Assembly (NCBI GenBank): GCA_963782055.1
Contig: CAWAIF010000003.1
Span: 2,656,001-2,720,000 of the forward strand
Origin: an uncultured delta proteobacterium
Lineage (GTDB): Bacteria > Myxococcota_A > Polyangia > Polyangiales > Polyangiaceae
Length of the DNA: 64,000 nt
Direction of reading: 5' to 3'
The notes under the pieces are model-generated. The model saw only the letters and a program-made list of their open reading frames with translations. It was not told the DNA's origin and ran no database searches. A program made the translations under genes and the position numbers. Of the stretch, positions 11,699-18,716 are shown piece after piece (position 1 is the stretch's first letter; each line of letters begins with the position of its first letter).

Positions 11699-12310
11699 TC
11701 AGCGCGGGTCGCGCCACATGAGCCACACCGGCGGCGCGTCCTCGGCCATGCGAAACTCCTCGGTCAGGGCGAAGCCGTGGCGCTCGTAGAGGCGCGCGTT
11801 CGTCTCGGTCGAGGCCTCCAGGTAAGCGGCTGCGCCGTCGGCGTCGCAGCAATCCAGCACGCCGCGGAGCAGCGCCGAGCCGATGCCGCGACCTTGCTTC
11901 TCGGGATCCACGCCTATCGCGAAGAGGTACCAGTGCGCCCGGGAGGGGTGCCTCTCCTGGACGCGCTGCCCGGCGCGCGCCCGGGCGAGCGCGCGCGTCG
12001 CCCCGACGGCGCCGAGCAGCGCCGGACCCATCGCGAGCATGCGCATCGCGCCGGTGTTCCACTTGCCCGGCGGCGTCCAGAGCGCGACGCCGTCCTCGCC
12101 GGCGAGCCACGCCTCGCGGTGCGGAAGGACCGCGTGCCGGAAGAAGGTGCCGAACGCCTGCCCCAGGCGGTCGTGGCGGAGCATGTAGTTGGCGACCGGG
12201 TCGCGATCGAAGGCGCGGGCGAGCACGCGCACGACCGTGGCGTGGTCATGCGCCTCGGCGCGTCGGAGGGGAGGGGGCGTCATGCGGTCATCCTGGGTCA
12301 CGGAGGTCAC
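11699..12310 (-). CDS. GNAT N-acetyltransferase
   Basis: HWYLFAIGVDPEKQGRGIGSALL and AYLEASTETNARLYERHGF. The start is GTG 12310 (overlapping the epmA stop) or ATG 12283. Confidence 0.85.
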   Translation of the reverse strand: MTSVTQDDRMTPPPLRRAEAHDHATVVRVLARAFDRDPVANYMLRHDRLGQAFGTFFRHAVLPHREAWLAGEDGVALWTPPGKWNTGAMRMLAMGPALLGAVGATRALARARAGQRVQERHPSRAHWYLFAIGVDPEKQGRGIGSALLRGVLDCCDADGAAAYLEASTETNARLYERHGFALTEEFRMAEDAPPVWLMWRDPR

Positions 12311-13203
12311 AGCTCCTCGACGGTGAAGGCGATCACCTCGCCGATGTTCCTGGTCCCCGCGACCAGGGCGCACAGCCGGTCCACGCCGAGCGCGTTGCCG
12401 CCGCTCGGGGGCATGCGCCCCACCGCCGCCAGCAGCTTCTCGTCCACCGGATACACCGGCAGGCCGCGCTCCTTCCGCGCCGCCTGGTCGCGCTCGAAGC
12501 GCGCGCGCTGCTCCACCGCGTCGGTCAGCTCGCCGAAGCCGTTGCACAGCTCGAGACCCGCGACGTACAGCTCGAAGCGCTCGGCCACGCGTGGGTCGTC
12601 CGGTTTGTTGCGCGCGAGCGACGCCATCGGCGCCGGGTACTCCGTCAAAAACACCGCGTGCGGCAGCGCGGTGAGCGCCGGCTCCACCTTCTCCACCAGC
12701 AGCCGGAAGAAGCGGTCCTCGTCGCGCTCCGCCATCGCGAGCGTCTCCTCGGCGCTCACCCCGGCGAAGCGCTCGAACGCCTCGCGGACGGTCAGCCGCG
12801 CGAAGGGCGGCCGCGCGTCCACCTCGACGCCCTCGATCACGAACCGCCCGCCCGAGACCGCGGCGACGAGCTGCTCGGTGTCGCGCATCACGTCCGCTAC
12901 CCCCGCGTTCCCGCGATACCACTCCAGCATGGTGAACTCGGGGTTGTGCTGCGCGCCGAGCTCGCCGCGCCGGAAGCACCGGCACACCTGGTAGATGCGC
13001 TCGTGCCCGCCCGCGAGCAGCCGCTTCATCTGGTACTCGGGCGAGGTGATGAGCCACCCGTCCCCGGCGGCGAAGGCGTCCAGGTGCAGGTCCATCCCCG
13101 GCGAGGGCACGATCGCCGGCGTCTCGACCTCCAGAAAGCCGCGCGCCTCGAAGAAGCGACGGATGGCGCGCAGCACGCCGGCGCGCAGCGCGAGCTGCTT
13201 CAT
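12307..13203 (-). CDS. epmA: EF-P lysine aminoacylase (GenX/PoxA)
   Basis: LysRS-like catalytic domain with no anticodon domain: FLEVETP, TSPEYQMKRLL, HNPEFTMLEWYR, AERFELY..GLELCNGFGELTD and ALGVDRL. Confidence 0.92.
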   Translation of the reverse strand: MKQLALRAGVLRAIRRFFEARGFLEVETPAIVPSPGMDLHLDAFAAGDGWLITSPEYQMKRLLAGGHERIYQVCRCFRRGELGAQHNPEFTMLEWYRGNAGVADVMRDTEQLVAAVSGGRFVIEGVEVDARPPFARLTVREAFERFAGVSAEETLAMAERDEDRFFRLLVEKVEPALTALPHAVFLTEYPAPMASLARNKPDDPRVAERFELYVAGLELCNGFGELTDAVEQRARFERDQAARKERGLPVYPVDEKLLAAVGRMPPSGGNALGVDRLCALVAGTRNIGEVIAFTVEEL

Positions 13204-13901
13204 CGCGGGGAGAGGCCGCCGAGCAGCAGGTCGGCGACCTGGCCCGCCGCGCGCGAGAGGCCGCCCTTCTCGGCCTTGCCGAGCGCCCAGGTGAGCGCGA
13301 TGCCGTCCAGCGCCCCGAACAGGACGCGCGCCACCAGGTGCGGCGACGCGTCCTTCCGGAACTCCCCGGCGGCCTGCCCCGCCTCCACGACCTTCGCGAT
13401 GACGTCCAGGTACGACTGGAACTTGGGCGCCGCGTACTCCTTCAGCAGCTGCGTCGACTGCCGCAGGATCACCGTCATCACCTCCGCGAGCTCGCGCTCG
13501 CCCTCCAGCAGGCCGAGCTGCAGCTCGACGACGCGCCGCAGGCGTGCGCGGGCGTCGGGCAGCTTGGGCAGCTCCTCGCGCGTGTAGGAGAGCAGGCGCT
13601 CCACCCGGTCCTCGAAGAGGGAGACGAGGAGGTCCTCCTTCGATGCAAAGTACAAGTAGATCGTGCCGTCGGCGACGCCGGCCGCGCGCGCCACGTCGGA
13701 CACGCGGGTCGCGTAGAAGCCGTTCTTGGCGAACACCTTCACGGCCGCGCCCAGGATGCGCTCGCGCTTGTCGCCGCGGGCCGCCGGGGCGCGCGCGGGC
13801 CCCCCGCGATCGGTCGGCGCCGGCCGGGCCGAGCGGCCACTCCGCGGCGCAGAAGCGCGGGATTTCCGCCTCGGTTTCGGACTGAGTGAGGATTCACTCA
13901 T
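13200..13901 (-). CDS. TetR-family regulator, Bacillus FadR (YsiA)-like
   Basis: HTH segment VARAAGVADGTIYLYFASKEDLL and a C-domain with ELAEVMTVILRQS. ATGA overlap with epmA. Confidence 0.85.
   Translation of the reverse strand: MSESSLSPKPRRKSRASAPRSGRSARPAPTDRGGPARAPAARGDKRERILGAAVKVFAKNGFYATRVSDVARAAGVADGTIYLYFASKEDLLVSLFEDRVERLLSYTREELPKLPDARARLRRVVELQLGLLEGERELAEVMTVILRQSTQLLKEYAAPKFQSYLDVIAKVVEAGQAAGEFRKDASPHLVARVLFGALDGIALTWALGKAEKGGLSRAAGQVADLLLGGLSPR
13883..13900. promoter_or_regulatory. Palindromic operator TGAGTGA-N4-TCACTCA overlapping the TetR start
   Basis: Perfect 7-bp inverted repeat, similar to the B. subtilis FadR box TGAATGA-N4-TCATTCA. Confidence 0.65.
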
Positions 13902-13952
13902 TACGGCAGCCAGTAGCAAAGGGTGCCGGGGGAGACAAGGGGCGCCCCCGGG

Positions 13953-16900
13953 TCAGCGCAGGCGCGCGACCTTCCCCGCCGCCCCCCACCGCGCGTACGC
14001 CTCCCGCGCGGCGTCTCGCTCCGACCGCTTCGCGGCCCCGGCCGGGTGACACTCCGCGGCGAGCTCGTGCGCCAGCGCGATGTCGCTGATCCAGTCGGCC
14101 TCGCCCGCCAGCGTCACCGCCTCCGCGAAGTGCGCCAGCGCGCCCTCCCGGTCGCCCTCGATGCGGCGGAGCGCGCCCCGGACCAGACTCACGCGGTGCG
14201 CGAAGTTCACCGGCGCGTGGGCCGAGAGGTCGCGCAGCGCCTTCAGGCTCGCCTCCAGCCTGGGCCGCAGGGCCTGGCGCTCCGCCTCGCTCAGCTCGTC
14301 CCAGGCGCCGCTCGCGGCGAGCACCGCGAACTGGTGCATGATCGGCACGTGCCAGACCGAGGGCGCGGCGTCGAGGTAGTCGCGCGCGGTCTCGAAGCAC
14401 GCGGAGGCCTCCCGCGCGCGGCCGAAGTGATACCGCGCCAGGCCCATCACCACACGCAGCACGTAGATGCCGCTGCGCGAGCCCTCCTGCTCCGCCTGCG
14501 CCAGCAGGCTCGCCTCGTCGAAGCCGGCGTCGTCGAGGCGCGACGGGTCGGCCATCTGCCCGGTGAGGCACCGCAGCAGCTGCTCGAAGGGCGCGTGGAC
14601 GTGCAAGGCGTTGACCTGCCCGAGCGCGCGCATCTGCTCGCCGAGCTGCGTCGCCTCGGCGAGGAGCGGTGCGAGCGGGCGTCCGGCGTACATCGCGTTG
14701 TGGACGTAGCCGTGCGCCGCGTACGAGGCGTACTCCAGGTCCCCCGTGCGACGGCCGATGTCGAACACCTCCCGGAGCGGCGCGAGGATCGTGTGCAGCG
14801 GGACCATCCACGGGCACACCAGGTTGTAGACCACGTGGCGCGTGGCGGCCTCCAGGCTGCGATCCTCCCAGCGGTCGACGAGCTTGACGGCGAGCTGACC
14901 CCACTCGTGGCTGACCGGGTACATCCCCAGGGTGTTGAGCACGATCCCCAGCAGCGCGATGGCGTACGGGGTCGCCGGGGCCAGCCCGCGCTCCACCGAG
15001 GTGGTCACCAGGTTGGCCGCGAGGACGGGCAGCAGCATCGGCCTGCCGAAGTAGGCGGCGGGGCTGACGCGCACCTGCACGCGCATCGCGGCGACGACCT
15101 GGGGGTCGTCGACGTCGGGCATCGCGGCGAGGCCGGCGGGGCCCACTCGCGTCAGGCTCTTTAGCGCGGCGGTGAAGGCGGCACCGACCTCCGCCTCGCC
15201 CGGGTCCTTCGGCAGTCGCACGCCGAGCAGCTCCAGCACCTCGCTCGCCGTGTTCACCGCCGACGCGTAGTCGTGGCGGCCGATGAAGGCGTCGATCTCC
15301 ACCTCCCACGCCACGAGCTGGTCCATCACCGTGCGGCCGTGCGCCTTGACCTCGGCGATGTGCGGCGCGAGCGCGTCCCACTCCGCGCAGAGGTACGCCG
15401 TCTCCGCCGCGCCTGCGTGGAGGCCGAGGGCCAGGGCGTACTCGTCGCGCCACGCGTTCTGCGGGTCGGGCAAGAGCGCGATGCCCCGCTCGAAGCACGT
15501 GAAGGCGAGCGGGAACGCCGCCCCCCCCCGCGCGGCTCCGCCGGCCTGCAGGTGGAGCTTCGCCGCCGCGAGGCGCTCCGCCGGGTCGGTGATCAGGGAG
15601 GCGGCCGCGCCCAGGTGGCGGACCGTGTCGAACACCCAGGCGCCCGCCGGCTCGCCGTCCGATGCGGCGTGGCGCGCGGTGAGCGCACGCGCGAGGGCGA
15701 GGTGATGCGCGCGGCGCGCGCCCGTGTCCAGCGACGCGAGGACCGACTCGCGGATGCGGTCGTGGTAGGTGGCGACGCGATCGTCGGCGCCCGGACCCGT
15801 CGAGCCCAGCAAGGACGCGCTCCGCAGGGAGAGCAGCGCGGGGAGCGCCTCGGGATCCAGGCCCGCGGCGGCGAAGGCGACCGACTGGGCCACCGGGCTG
15901 TCGGCGACGGCCACGACCTCCAGCAGCGCGCGCTGATCGCGGGGCAGCGCCCGCAGGCGCGTGGCGATCGCGCCCTCGAGCGACATCTCGGCGCTCCGGG
16001 GCGTGTCGTGCGTCGCGAACCGGGCGAGCTCCTCGATGAAGAAGGGGACGCCCGCGGCCTCCTCGGCGAGGTCGCGCACGCGCGAGGGGCTCGCCGCCTC
16101 CCCGAGCGCCGCCAGCGTGGCGCGCGCCAGCGCCTCGGCGTCTTCGTGCGGGAGCGCCAGCGCGGGGAGGTCGACGAGCGCGCCGTGCGCGTCCAGCTCA
16201 CGCGCGAACGCCAGGTAGCCCGCCAGCGCGTCGTTGCGCAGCGCCTCCTCCGGCCGGAAGCTCGCCACGAGCAGGAGCGGCATCTCGCGCGGCTCCCGCA
16301 CCAGCGACTCCAGCAGTCCCGCGCTGTCTGCGTCCGCCCACTGCAGATCGTCGATCGCCAGCACGATGCTTCGACGCCGCACGCGGGCGAGCGACTCCAG
16401 CAGCTCGCGCAGCGCCGTCCACGCGCGCCGCCGCAGCTTCATCGCGTCGCGCGCGGGGGCGTGGGCCGCGCGCGCGGCGATCGCCGGGACGACCGAGAGG
16501 GCAGGGAAGACGTTCATCAGCTCGCCGGTCCACGCCGGGAGCAGCGCGTCCACGTCCAGCCGCGCGGCGCCCTCGCTGCGCTGCGCCTCCAGCAGCCTCT
16601 CGGCGAGCTGATCGACGATGCCGTCGAAGGCCTTGTACGGCACGCTCTCGCGCTCGTAGCACCGGCCGGAGAAGACCTCCGCCTGGTGCATGTCGCGTAC
16701 GCCACCGACGAAGCTCCGCACCACCGCCGACTTCCCGATGCCCGACGCGCCGCGCACGTGCGCCACCGTCAGGCGTCCCTCCCGCGTCCGCTCGAAGGCG
16801 CGCGCCAGCGTCGCGAGCTCCTGAGTGCGGCCGACGAAGACCGACCGCGGCGCGCGGCCCGTCGCGCCCAGCCCGCCGCCCGCGCCCTTGGTCAGGATCG

Positions 16901-17882
16901 CGAGCACCTCCCGCCCTTCGGGACGGAGCTCCGGCTCCGGGCGGAGCAGCCACGCGCAGAGCTCGCTCAGGTCCGCCGGGAGGCCGGGCAGCAGCAGGCG
17001 CGGCGCCGGGGGCGTCTGCAGCGTCTTCTGGATGTACAGCTCCACGTGGCTCGAGGCGCCGGCGAAGGGCAGTCGTCCGGTCAGGATCTCGTAGAGCATC
17101 ACCCCGAGCGCGTACCAGTCGGAGGCCGGGCCCACCTCGCCGCCGGTCATCTGCTCGGGGGACATGTACGTCGGGGTGCCGCTGAGCGCCGACGAGCGCG
17201 TCTCTTCCCCGACGCGCCGCGCCAGCCCGAAGTCCACCACCACCACGTCGCCCTCGCCACGCACCAGCACGTTGCTCGGCTTGACGTCGCCGTGCCAGAG
17301 GCCCGCGTCATGGAGGGCGAGCACACCCCGGGCGAGCGCGCCGAACGCCTCGCGCACCGTCTCGATGGGTCGCGTCGGCGGTGCGACGCTGCCAGAGTCG
17401 AGGAGGTGCGGCGGCGTGGCCTCGTCGAGCGCCGGGTCGTGCTCGCGCATCGTCGGCATCTCGTGCCGCAGCGTGAGCCGTATGCCGCGCACATCCAGAT
17501 CCTGCCCGCGCGCCCACCGCCGGAAGTCGATCCCCTCGATCCGTTCCATGGCGAAGAACCACAGGCCGTCCTCGCAGCCCAGCTCGTAGACCGGGGCGAG
17601 GTTGGGGTGCGACAGGTCCGCGACCGTCCGGAACTCGCGCTTCAGCCGCACGCCGGCCGCCGCGTCGGCCACCAGGATCGTCTTGAGGGCGACCCGCGCG
17701 TCGCGCTCCCGGTCGATGGCGTCGTGGACGGTCCCCATCCCGCCCCCGCCAAGGCGCCCCACCACCTCGTAGCGTCCGAGCGTGACCGGGTGCTCCGGGG
17801 TGGCCGCGAGGAGCTTCGCGAGGAGCGCCTCGGCGGCGATGCTGCTCGCGTCGTCGTCGCCTTGCTCTGCGGCGGTCGCCAT
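13953..17882 (-). CDS. Ser/Thr kinase - STAND (AAA_16-like) ATPase - TPR-like helical protein
   Basis: GGGGMG, VALK, HGDVKPSN and DFG; Walker A GASGIGKS; Walker B LAIDDLQWAD. RBS GGAGAGGA. Confidence 0.9.
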   Translation of the reverse strand: MATAAEQGDDDASSIAAEALLAKLLAATPEHPVTLGRYEVVGRLGGGGMGTVHDAIDRERDARVALKTILVADAAAGVRLKREFRTVADLSHPNLAPVYELGCEDGLWFFAMERIEGIDFRRWARGQDLDVRGIRLTLRHEMPTMREHDPALDEATPPHLLDSGSVAPPTRPIETVREAFGALARGVLALHDAGLWHGDVKPSNVLVRGEGDVVVVDFGLARRVGEETRSSALSGTPTYMSPEQMTGGEVGPASDWYALGVMLYEILTGRLPFAGASSHVELYIQKTLQTPPAPRLLLPGLPADLSELCAWLLRPEPELRPEGREVLAILTKGAGGGLGATGRAPRSVFVGRTQELATLARAFERTREGRLTVAHVRGASGIGKSAVVRSFVGGVRDMHQAEVFSGRCYERESVPYKAFDGIVDQLAERLLEAQRSEGAARLDVDALLPAWTGELMNVFPALSVVPAIAARAAHAPARDAMKLRRRAWTALRELLESLARVRRRSIVLAIDDLQWADADSAGLLESLVREPREMPLLLVASFRPEEALRNDALAGYLAFARELDAHGALVDLPALALPHEDAEALARATLAALGEAASPSRVRDLAEEAAGVPFFIEELARFATHDTPRSAEMSLEGAIATRLRALPRDQRALLEVVAVADSPVAQSVAFAAAGLDPEALPALLSLRSASLLGSTGPGADDRVATYHDRIRESVLASLDTGARRAHHLALARALTARHAASDGEPAGAWVFDTVRHLGAAASLITDPAERLAAAKLHLQAGGAARGGAAFPLAFTCFERGIALLPDPQNAWRDEYALALGLHAGAAETAYLCAEWDALAPHIAEVKAHGRTVMDQLVAWEVEIDAFIGRHDYASAVNTASEVLELLGVRLPKDPGEAEVGAAFTAALKSLTRVGPAGLAAMPDVDDPQVVAAMRVQVRVSPAAYFGRPMLLPVLAANLVTTSVERGLAPATPYAIALLGIVLNTLGMYPVSHEWGQLAVKLVDRWEDRSLEAATRHVVYNLVCPWMVPLHTILAPLREVFDIGRRTGDLEYASYAAHGYVHNAMYAGRPLAPLLAEATQLGEQMRALGQVNALHVHAPFEQLLRCLTGQMADPSRLDDAGFDEASLLAQAEQEGSRSGIYVLRVVMGLARYHFGRAREASACFETARDYLDAAPSVWHVPIMHQFAVLAASGAWDELSEAERQALRPRLEASLKALRDLSAHAPVNFAHRVSLVRGALRRIEGDREGALAHFAEAVTLAGEADWISDIALAHELAAECHPAGAAKRSERDAAREAYARWGAAGKVARLR

Positions 17883-18026
17883 TCCTCTCCCGGCCTCGGA
17901 CCTTCCCTGAAGAGACCCATTGTCGCACGGCGAGGGCGCGCGGTGGGGCGCGTCGTCGGGGGCCTGGAGAGCCGGTGTCGTACGGCGCCCCCGCGGGGGT
18001 CGGGCCTCTGGTACGCTTCCCGGGCC

Positions 18027-18443
18027 ATGCCGCGCGCGATCGCCGTCCTCCCGCTCTTCGCCGCGCTCCTCGCGGGGCCCGCGGCCCAGGCTCGACCGAC
18101 GCCGCCGCCGGATCACAAGCCTGCCGTCATCCCGCCGGCCAAGCGCCAGGAGGCGGCGATCGCCGCGCGCGTCCGCACCGTCCTGCAGGCCTTCCGCGGC
18201 AAGCCGGATGACGCCAGCACCTGGGCTCAGGCGCGGGCCGCCGTCGGCAACACCCTCTTGGAGCTGTGGCGCTCCGGCGTGCTCAAGGGCAACAAGGCCA
18301 GCCTGGCGTACACCGTCGCGTGCGGGGGAGGCGCGACGATGACGCAGAACGACATCAACCTGAAGCGCCTGGTCGTGGTCTACGGCGTGGCGCTGCAGAA
18401 GCCGGCGGAGTTCTCGTACACCGTGGTGAGCCTGGTCCTGTAG
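18027..18443 (+). CDS. Secreted protein consisting of a phage/eCIS tail-sheath C-terminal domain
   Basis: Sec-type signal MPRAIAVLPLFAALLAGPAAQA and a Pro linker, then KPDDASTW...LWRSGVLKG...AYTVACG.GATMTQNDI...LVVVYGVALQKPAEF. TACGCT lies 9 nt upstream. Confidence 0.75.
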   Translation: MPRAIAVLPLFAALLAGPAAQARPTPPPDHKPAVIPPAKRQEAAIAARVRTVLQAFRGKPDDASTWAQARAAVGNTLLELWRSGVLKGNKASLAYTVACGGGATMTQNDINLKRLVVVYGVALQKPAEFSYTVVSLVL

Positions 18444-18452
18444 GGAGGGGCC

Positions 18453-18716
18453 CTACCTCGCCAGCATGAACATCCGCTCGGCGAAGACCGCGACCTGATG
18501 ACCCATCCACGGTCCGGCCACCACCAGCGCCACGACCACCGCCAGGATGCGGGGCAGGTGCGAGATCGTCGGGTCCTGGATCTGCGAGGCCGCCTGGAAC
18601 GCCGCCACCACCAGCCCGACCAGCGCCGCCACGCCGACGGCGGGCAGGGACACCGCGAGCGAGAGGATGAGCGCCTCCTGCCCGTGCTGCACCAGCGCGG
18701 CCGCGTGCGGGGCCAT
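18453..18716 (-). CDS. sctS: Type III export apparatus subunit SctS/EscS/FliQ family
   Basis: 87 aa, hydrophobic, with SLPAVGVAALVGLVVAAFQAASQIQDPTISHLPRI...GPWM. Confidence 0.85.
   Translation of the reverse strand: MAPHAAALVQHGQEALILSLAVSLPAVGVAALVGLVVAAFQAASQIQDPTISHLPRILAVVVALVVAGPWMGHQVAVFAERMFMLAR

Follow-up and report, generated by a model that had tools for sequence, protein, structure and literature searches.

A predicted exported mini-sheath gene in a member of the Polyangiaceae and its possible partnership with exported tube-fold proteins

The sheaths of contractile injection systems are assembled in the cytoplasm, and that of an incoming tail is already interlocked on arrival; to our knowledge, sheath proteins are known only as parts of injection machines assembled in this way. 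The C-terminal domain of the sheath bears the strand-exchange handshake as well as the attachment helix, through which the sheath contacts the tube, with charge complementarity (PMC8894135; bioRxiv 10.1101/2025.04.20.649488). In the eCIS sheaths Afp2/3/4, Pvc2/3/4, Alg2 and Anabaena All3325 (PF17482, Phage_sheath_1C) this domain is part of a protein of 350-700 aa. The handshake fold also occurs as a stand-alone domain in the gp25/Pvc9/Alg9/TssE initiators (PF04965), of which gp25 is cytoplasmic and baseplate-bound and Alg9 has been described to imitate the sheath handshake (PMC8894135), and in the E. coli anti-adaptor IraD, a cytoplasmic, solitary protein of the gp25 fold that has been domesticated for a task unrelated to tails, the inhibition of RssB (PMC6546054). 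Small bacterial or prophage genes such as Tai and Tab act against phage tails, at the level of tail assembly in infected cells (PMC11364771; PMC10884400), and nothing was seen that ties them to a sheath fold or to export. No description of a sheath domain with a signal peptide was found in the literature searched, mostly articles from outside subscription journals.

The window analysed here is a stretch of 64,000 nucleotides of a Polyangiaceae genome (G000; 7.58 Mb, 71.6% GC, 97% complete) that carries P0001, a 138-aa ORF which the preliminary description had presented as an orphan secreted sheath C-terminal domain. Its features, in coordinates of the window, are the following.

13204..18452, no strand assigned: lineage-specific block of about 5.2 kb (a presumably TetR-like gene, a kinase-AAA gene and the mini-sheath gene), missing at this site in five of five congeners
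13953..17882, minus strand: Ser/Thr kinase-AAA_16 gene, divergent, in the same lineage-specific block
18009..18017, plus strand: -10-like element of the extended type, spotted by eye, 9 nt 5' of the ATG
18027..18443, plus strand: predicted exported mini-sheath gene P0001, 138 aa (ORF, PDB match, codon pattern, structure model)
18027..18092, plus strand: residues 1-22, predicted by a heuristic to be a Sec/SPI signal peptide with AQA at its end
18093..18134, plus strand: Pro-rich linker, residues 23-36, devoid of regular secondary structure in the model
18135..18401, plus strand: sheath C-terminal handshake core, residues 37-125, which comprises a beta-hairpin and two long helices and has other residues in place of the E..S and VFE of full sheaths
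18402..18440, plus strand: C-terminal arm (PAEF and a beta-strand), residues 126-138, which, to judge by the aligned ranges, would fold back onto the protein's own sheet when modelled as a monomer
18453..18716, minus strand: fliQ/sctS-like gene, convergent, in the conserved flank, separated by 9 nt from the stop of the mini-sheath gene

The ORF at 18027-18443 is the tail end of a shadow frame, 15273-18443 (1056 aa), from which it had been picked out, and it is confirmed as an intact gene. The GC content by codon position is host-like, 0.71/0.52/0.95, close to that of the neighbouring genes (0.78/0.51/0.96 and 0.69/0.45/0.97), whereas a 28-codon 5' extension present in a database gene call (P0003) shows values of 0.75/0.75/0.89, unlike those neighbours. 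The closest homolog, P0004, encoded in a 1484-bp contig, is also 138 aa long, uses the equivalent ATG as its start and is 61% identical to P0001 over the full length, leader included. A promoter scan found no consensus promoter near the gene, nor were a terminator consensus or insertion repeats found around it. No RNA dataset containing the P0001 sequence was listed; a DNA contig of 168 bp, perhaps from the source sample, has the same sequence as 18290-18457.

The leader contains a single Arg and a hydrophobic window of 2.77 at residue 5, with AQA at residues 20-22. The signal peptide and Pro linker described earlier are borne out, export being predicted by a heuristic. The eCIS sheaths are export-free cytoplasmic proteins, whereas P0001 has, by this heuristic, a signal peptide. 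An origin of the leader as a leftover of the final hairpin in domain II of a sheath, an idea prompted by BLAST extensions, was rejected, P0001 scoring below 61% of 1408 background leaders.

The assignment of the rest of the protein to the C-terminal domain of phage and Afp/PVC-like eCIS sheaths held at the levels of both sequence and fold. All the motifs quoted in support of it (P-D-xx-TW, LWRxGxLxG, AYxVxCGxGxTMTxxDI and GVAxxKPAEF) are present. The 15 PDB sequences matched by P0001 are all sheaths, the top one being Afp3 (E=1.9e-15), and a PHROG tail sheath family is matched with E=2.5e-10; the Pfam score against PF17482 (18.2 bits) lies under the cut-off of 26.9, and a genome-wide PF17482 search of G000 missed P0001. 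An AlphaFold2 model built from a 20-row alignment (pLDDT 87) gave the PVC, Afp and AlgoCIS sheaths as top Foldseek matches, and superimposed on sheaths with a Z of 12.7 and an rmsd of 1.6 Å over 91 residues, at 30-38% identity to the eCIS sheaths. The gp25-type folds scored Z values of 7.4 to 8.1, near the background warning level of the tool (2ia7, 8.1; 6gj1, 7.4), with merely 11-12% identity, and IraD (6od1) a Z of 7.4. Unlike IraD, which is gp25-derived and far more diverged, P0001 derives from the sheath itself, and unlike gp25 it is predicted to be exported.

The C-terminal arm, including the PAEF common to eCIS sheaths, is not shortened, with 9 residues following PAEF (9-12 being typical). 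The alignments of the model to assembled sheaths mostly end near residue 125, whereas those to free gp25, IraD, TssE and one crystallised sheath reach residues 137-138, which suggests a folded-back C-terminal strand in the monomer model. With a domain of about 100 aa, P0001 lacks the other parts of an eCIS sheath: the subtilisin-like domain II (PF04984) is absent from P0001 and from G000 in family searches, the E..S and VFE motifs are missing, and the N-terminal arm motif PG[VI][YF][VI]xE (of the PGVYxEE type, seen also among the homolog matches) was found neither in P0001 nor in any of the six frames of G000. A separate plug protein carrying the missing arm was accordingly rejected. Neither P0001 nor G000 gave a sequence match to PF04965. 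P0001 is built from the core domain of a sheath and is not functionally an eCIS sheath; it has a predicted signal peptide, and neither an operon nor a baseplate or spike gene accompanies it in the genome.

The preliminary description had reported no other tail genes in the 64 kb, which stands and can be extended to the whole genome with one exception. Family searches of G000 gave no match to PF04984, PF04865, PF04965, PF05954 or PF05638; nine custom profiles for gp25, spike, baseplate and cap gave only generic LysM matches; the ORFs from ten regions of eCIS loci of relatives matched P0001 only, besides generic ATPase and housekeeping genes; and a search with 110 full-length sheaths matched solely the P0001 ORF. 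The exception is P0172 (G000:C3:5168763-5169641; L005:1312-2190), a gp19-type protein of 292 aa encoded by the only tube-like gene in the genome, 2.5 Mb from P0001, which matches PF06841 with 32.3 bits (cut-off 28.2), has a signal-like leader according to the heuristic and has no tail genes around it. Its homolog search returned only itself and its PDB sequence search nothing, a second tube domain suspected by eye in its second half was not detected, and its single-sequence fold had a pLDDT of 35.

The fliQ/sctS-like gene directly abuts the gene at 12307-13203, which we take to be epmA-like, in five of five congeners, and in G000 the 5.2-kb block lies between them. P0001 was found in none of six congeners, and neither P0001 nor P0172 was found with these queries in 40 relatives, except for full-length sheaths in two. 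The block contains no phage genes, the scores of the neighbours are under defence-family cut-offs, and no anchor, usher or chaperone gene adjoins P0001. The solitary fliQ/sctS-like gene, kept in five of five congeners, sits after a gene for a Cys-rich exported-type protein. The idea that the divergent kinase-AAA gene acts as a sensor was considered and found unsupported; in the part of the literature consulted, the tail sheath is named merely as a possible future STAND target (PMC13581612).

Proteins with the architecture of P0001 exist elsewhere. Homolog representatives with E values up to 0.001 numbered 2783, and the combination of signal peptide and mini-sheath was present in 16 of the best 150 metagenomic matches, a count that includes four judged by eye and is favoured by the query's own leader, the matches of known contig size all coming from contigs of less than 2 kb. 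By filter, among the same best 150 of 2783, a signal-like core was detected in 11 of 31 rows classed as short (a protein of 405 aa is wrongly placed among the 31) and in 4 of 119 classed as full, a mini of 159 aa among them. Intact, solitary, mid-contig genes for predicted exported minis of 146, 149 and 157 aa were also identified in three (G1511, G1552 and G1613) of 301 genomes of one Bacteroidota family. Short-frame candidates taken from 301 genomes in the wider class showed none, nor did the loci classified from scans of metagenome, GTDB and viral contigs. None was seen either in the Myxococcota-side and Acidobacteriota loci examined (30, 30 and 23 loci plus fetched regions; 150 of 392 matches), which does not amount to absence, since GC-rich frames can mask short genes (the frame in G000 is itself 1092 aa long) and few loci were classified. 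Annotated phages gave no match to P0001. ESM Atlas holds PF17482 clusters of 121-148 aa that are unnamed or labelled sheath. The sheath fold, a heuristically predicted export and intact homologues, the three points on which the preliminary description had made its proposal depend, were all found.

Other unusual sheath genes were encountered. Signal-less stand-alone C-terminal domains of about 110 aa are encoded at L210:6951-7274 (G983), where PAEF is lost, and L208:8449-8856 (G1003); minimal sheaths in which the N-terminal arm is fused straight to the C-terminal domain are those at L021:1384-1809 (G237), P0139 and P0115, the last also bearing a signal-like leader; and Sec-like or twin-arginine-like leaders occur on the full-length sheaths P0012, P0029, P0043, P0051 and P0068, the latter a protein of 1080 aa with beta-propeller repeats.

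In a tree of 95 rows and 95 columns (for which 45 full-length rows were sampled at random and three fragments excluded), the label "exported mini" required 5 changes, versus 12.3 when shuffled (0 of 500), and a single clade of exported minis is compatible with the data (p-AU 0.75), the free search being incomplete and long branches possibly attracting one another. The exported minis also differ in common from full sheaths, although kin among them are not independent and the retention of PAEF, the alignment anchor, is circular. E46, S48, V57, F58 and E59 are kept in 4, 2, 1, 1 and 4 of 17 exported minis, versus 50, 50, 44, 51 and 51 of 56 full sheaths. W66 is found in 17/17 minis and R/K70 in 16/17; K/R90 is found in 16/17 versus 36/56 full sheaths, R/K114 in 17/17 versus 37/56, and the median charge is +3 (n=17) versus -1 (n=56). 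The three Bacteroidota minis are likewise basic and devoid of E..S and VFE, but they have diverged further: the conserved Trp is missing from two of them, and PAEF from that of G1613.

In G1552, a signal-peptide Hcp gene (P0173; L306:6753-7265) is convergent with the mini-sheath gene at a distance of 98 bp; it matches PF05638 with 32.2 bits (cut-off 23.5), is the sole such match in that genome and is not accompanied by any gp19-type tube there. Close relatives of this Hcp (E below 1e-20) were found in three of three mini-sheath Bacteroidota genomes and in none of 27 other Bacteroidota genomes, two of which have distant, weaker signal-peptide Hcp genes. The G1613 relative is intact, has a leader and lies on a different contig from the mini-sheath, while that of G1511, 6.2 kb from an intact mini-sheath, is disrupted, with a frame break as well as a stop. 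With four mini-sheath genomes in total, of which the three Bacteroidota ones are kin with the genes amid many secreted-protein genes, the co-occurrence may reflect shared islands. No Hcp was found in G000, and P0172 and P0173 do not align (E=0.14), so that no single partner family is fixed. Two of the four mini-sheath genomes (G1511 and G1613) also keep full eCIS-type sheath-tube loci. The signal-peptide Hcp-type genes of Bacteroidota at L324:1498-2058, L325:1498-2046 and L326:1456-2046 have, like that of G1552, no T6SS locus within the 1.5 kb flanks seen, and a secreted protein encoded 4 kb from the G1511 mini-sheath (L305:11491-13650) gave ricin-type lectin and thiol-activated cytolysin matches.

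A parallel in the cytoplasm is provided by signal-less solitary sheaths. In Acidobacteriota with a sheath but no adjoining tube gene, a tube was found elsewhere in 10 of 14 genomes; after four were dropped (one that had a full locus and three because of short or cut contigs), a solitary sheath with a distant tube remained in six of ten, versus a tube in one of 19 sheath-negative controls, for which the Fisher p=0.003 is an overstatement. gp25 is absent in five of those six genomes and present in seven of seven eCIS controls. Bacteroidota, partly close kin, show a like pattern; G237 has its signal-less mini-sheath without a tube. Solitary eCIS-type sheath genes of 380-460 aa in housekeeping contexts were observed in Bacteroidota, Acidobacteriota, a Bathyarchaeota genome and Bauldia (L212:8155-9366, L088:5107-6246, L095:5110-6261, L235, L236, L239, L243-L246 and L250), often with a solitary tube elsewhere. 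VgrG-like matches in G1003, G749 and G947 were rejected as scattered eCIS spikes, their neighbours reading as T6SS-type loci.

Similar genes in unrelated bacteria, some near export-signal tube genes, make tail parts seem to be reused outside the cytoplasm. The reading that we tentatively prefer, possible rather than probable, is that P0001 is exported and, without contracting, partners rings of exported tube proteins; its export, tube binding and any assembly are all inferred. The handshake domain of a sheath would have been domesticated, exported by Sec and cut after AQA; the mature protein, in the periplasm or at the surface, could bind through its retained helices to the outside of rings or tubes of exported tube-fold proteins (in G000, P0172) and act as a clamp, cap or thin coat on them, its C-terminal strand being folded back or swapped with a neighbour. 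It cannot contract, since domain II and the N-terminal arm are missing, as is any baseplate. The fold, the signal peptide predicted for the sole tube-like gene of G000, the G1552 pair at 98 bp, the Hcp distribution (3/3 versus 0/27), the basic charge and the Acidobacteriota parallel are in favour of this reading; against it are the 2.5 Mb between the G000 pair, the broken Hcp near an intact mini in G1511, the Hcp genes in 2/27 mini-less genomes, the failure of P0172 and P0173 to align, the possibility of shared islands and the loss of PAEF or the Trp in Bacteroidota minis.

It could also be the case, although we consider it unlikely, that P0001 has been repurposed in the manner of IraD, as a small, self-complemented basic module for an unrelated envelope partner or a polyanion, unlinked to tails. 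The precedent itself, the alignment of the C-terminal strand with free gp25-type proteins rather than with most assembled sheaths, and the loss of the assembly-type motifs E..S and VFE in 13-16 of 17 exported minis would fit, but the linkage of mini-sheaths to signal-peptide tube genes would not, and P0001 is far closer to eCIS sheaths than IraD is to gp25, with 15% identity (PMC6546054).

The preliminary description had offered two roles, a decoy or poison for contractile tails and reuse in the envelope. The former is possible but decidedly unlikely: the exported domain would block delivery by a myophage, tailocin, eCIS or T6SS by binding the bare tube after contraction, or free sheath ends, but incoming sheaths are already interlocked, G1511 and G1613 retain sheath-tube loci of their own, and the neighbours encode secreted enzymes and regulators, not recognised defence genes. 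The patchy occurrence in a lineage-specific block, as for defence genes, and the basic surface of the exported minis speak for a decoy, as does the existence of anti-tail defences such as Tai, which however targets tail assembly within infected cells, where an exported protein would be absent (PMC11364771). No direct support for a decoy was found, and the evidence leans towards envelope reuse, probably with exported tube-fold proteins.

Envelope reuse could alternatively take the form, improbable in our judgement, of a self-assembling fibre without a tube, in which subunits are chained by C-terminal strand donation as in donor-strand pili. The full-length arm and the strand-exchanging nature of handshakes (PMC8894135; bioRxiv 2025.04.20.649488) are consistent with a fibre, but there is no N-terminal arm, the model of the monomer appears to complement itself and no anchor, usher or chaperone gene adjoins P0001. 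More improbable still is a functionless, neutrally shortened eCIS sheath gene with a chance hydrophobic leader, for although solitary sheath genes span every degree of shortening, with a split gene and signal-less minis among them, the host-like codon pattern, the conservation in P0004 up to the leader, the clustering on the tree and a motif shift common to exported minis and unseen in signal-bearing full sheaths are all contrary to it.

The partnership of P0001 with exported tubes may be an instance of something wider. It is conceivable, though rather doubtful, that many bacteria make a baseplate-free, Sec-exported assembly in which signal-peptide gp19 or Hcp rings or tubes in the envelope are clamped or coated by a mini-sheath. 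A published metagenome survey drops candidates without baseplate, tube or initiator genes (PMC12210884), so that solitary mini-sheath genes would be missed. If the partnership is real, a non-contractile envelope structure would have arisen from contractile machines, with scattered genes that cluster-based CIS surveys discard. The recurrence of an exported sheath core, the part that contacts the tube and exchanges strands, implies a job outside the cytoplasm, and the G1552 gene pair would matter whether it turned out to point to a new envelope assembly or to a first decoy for contractile weapons.
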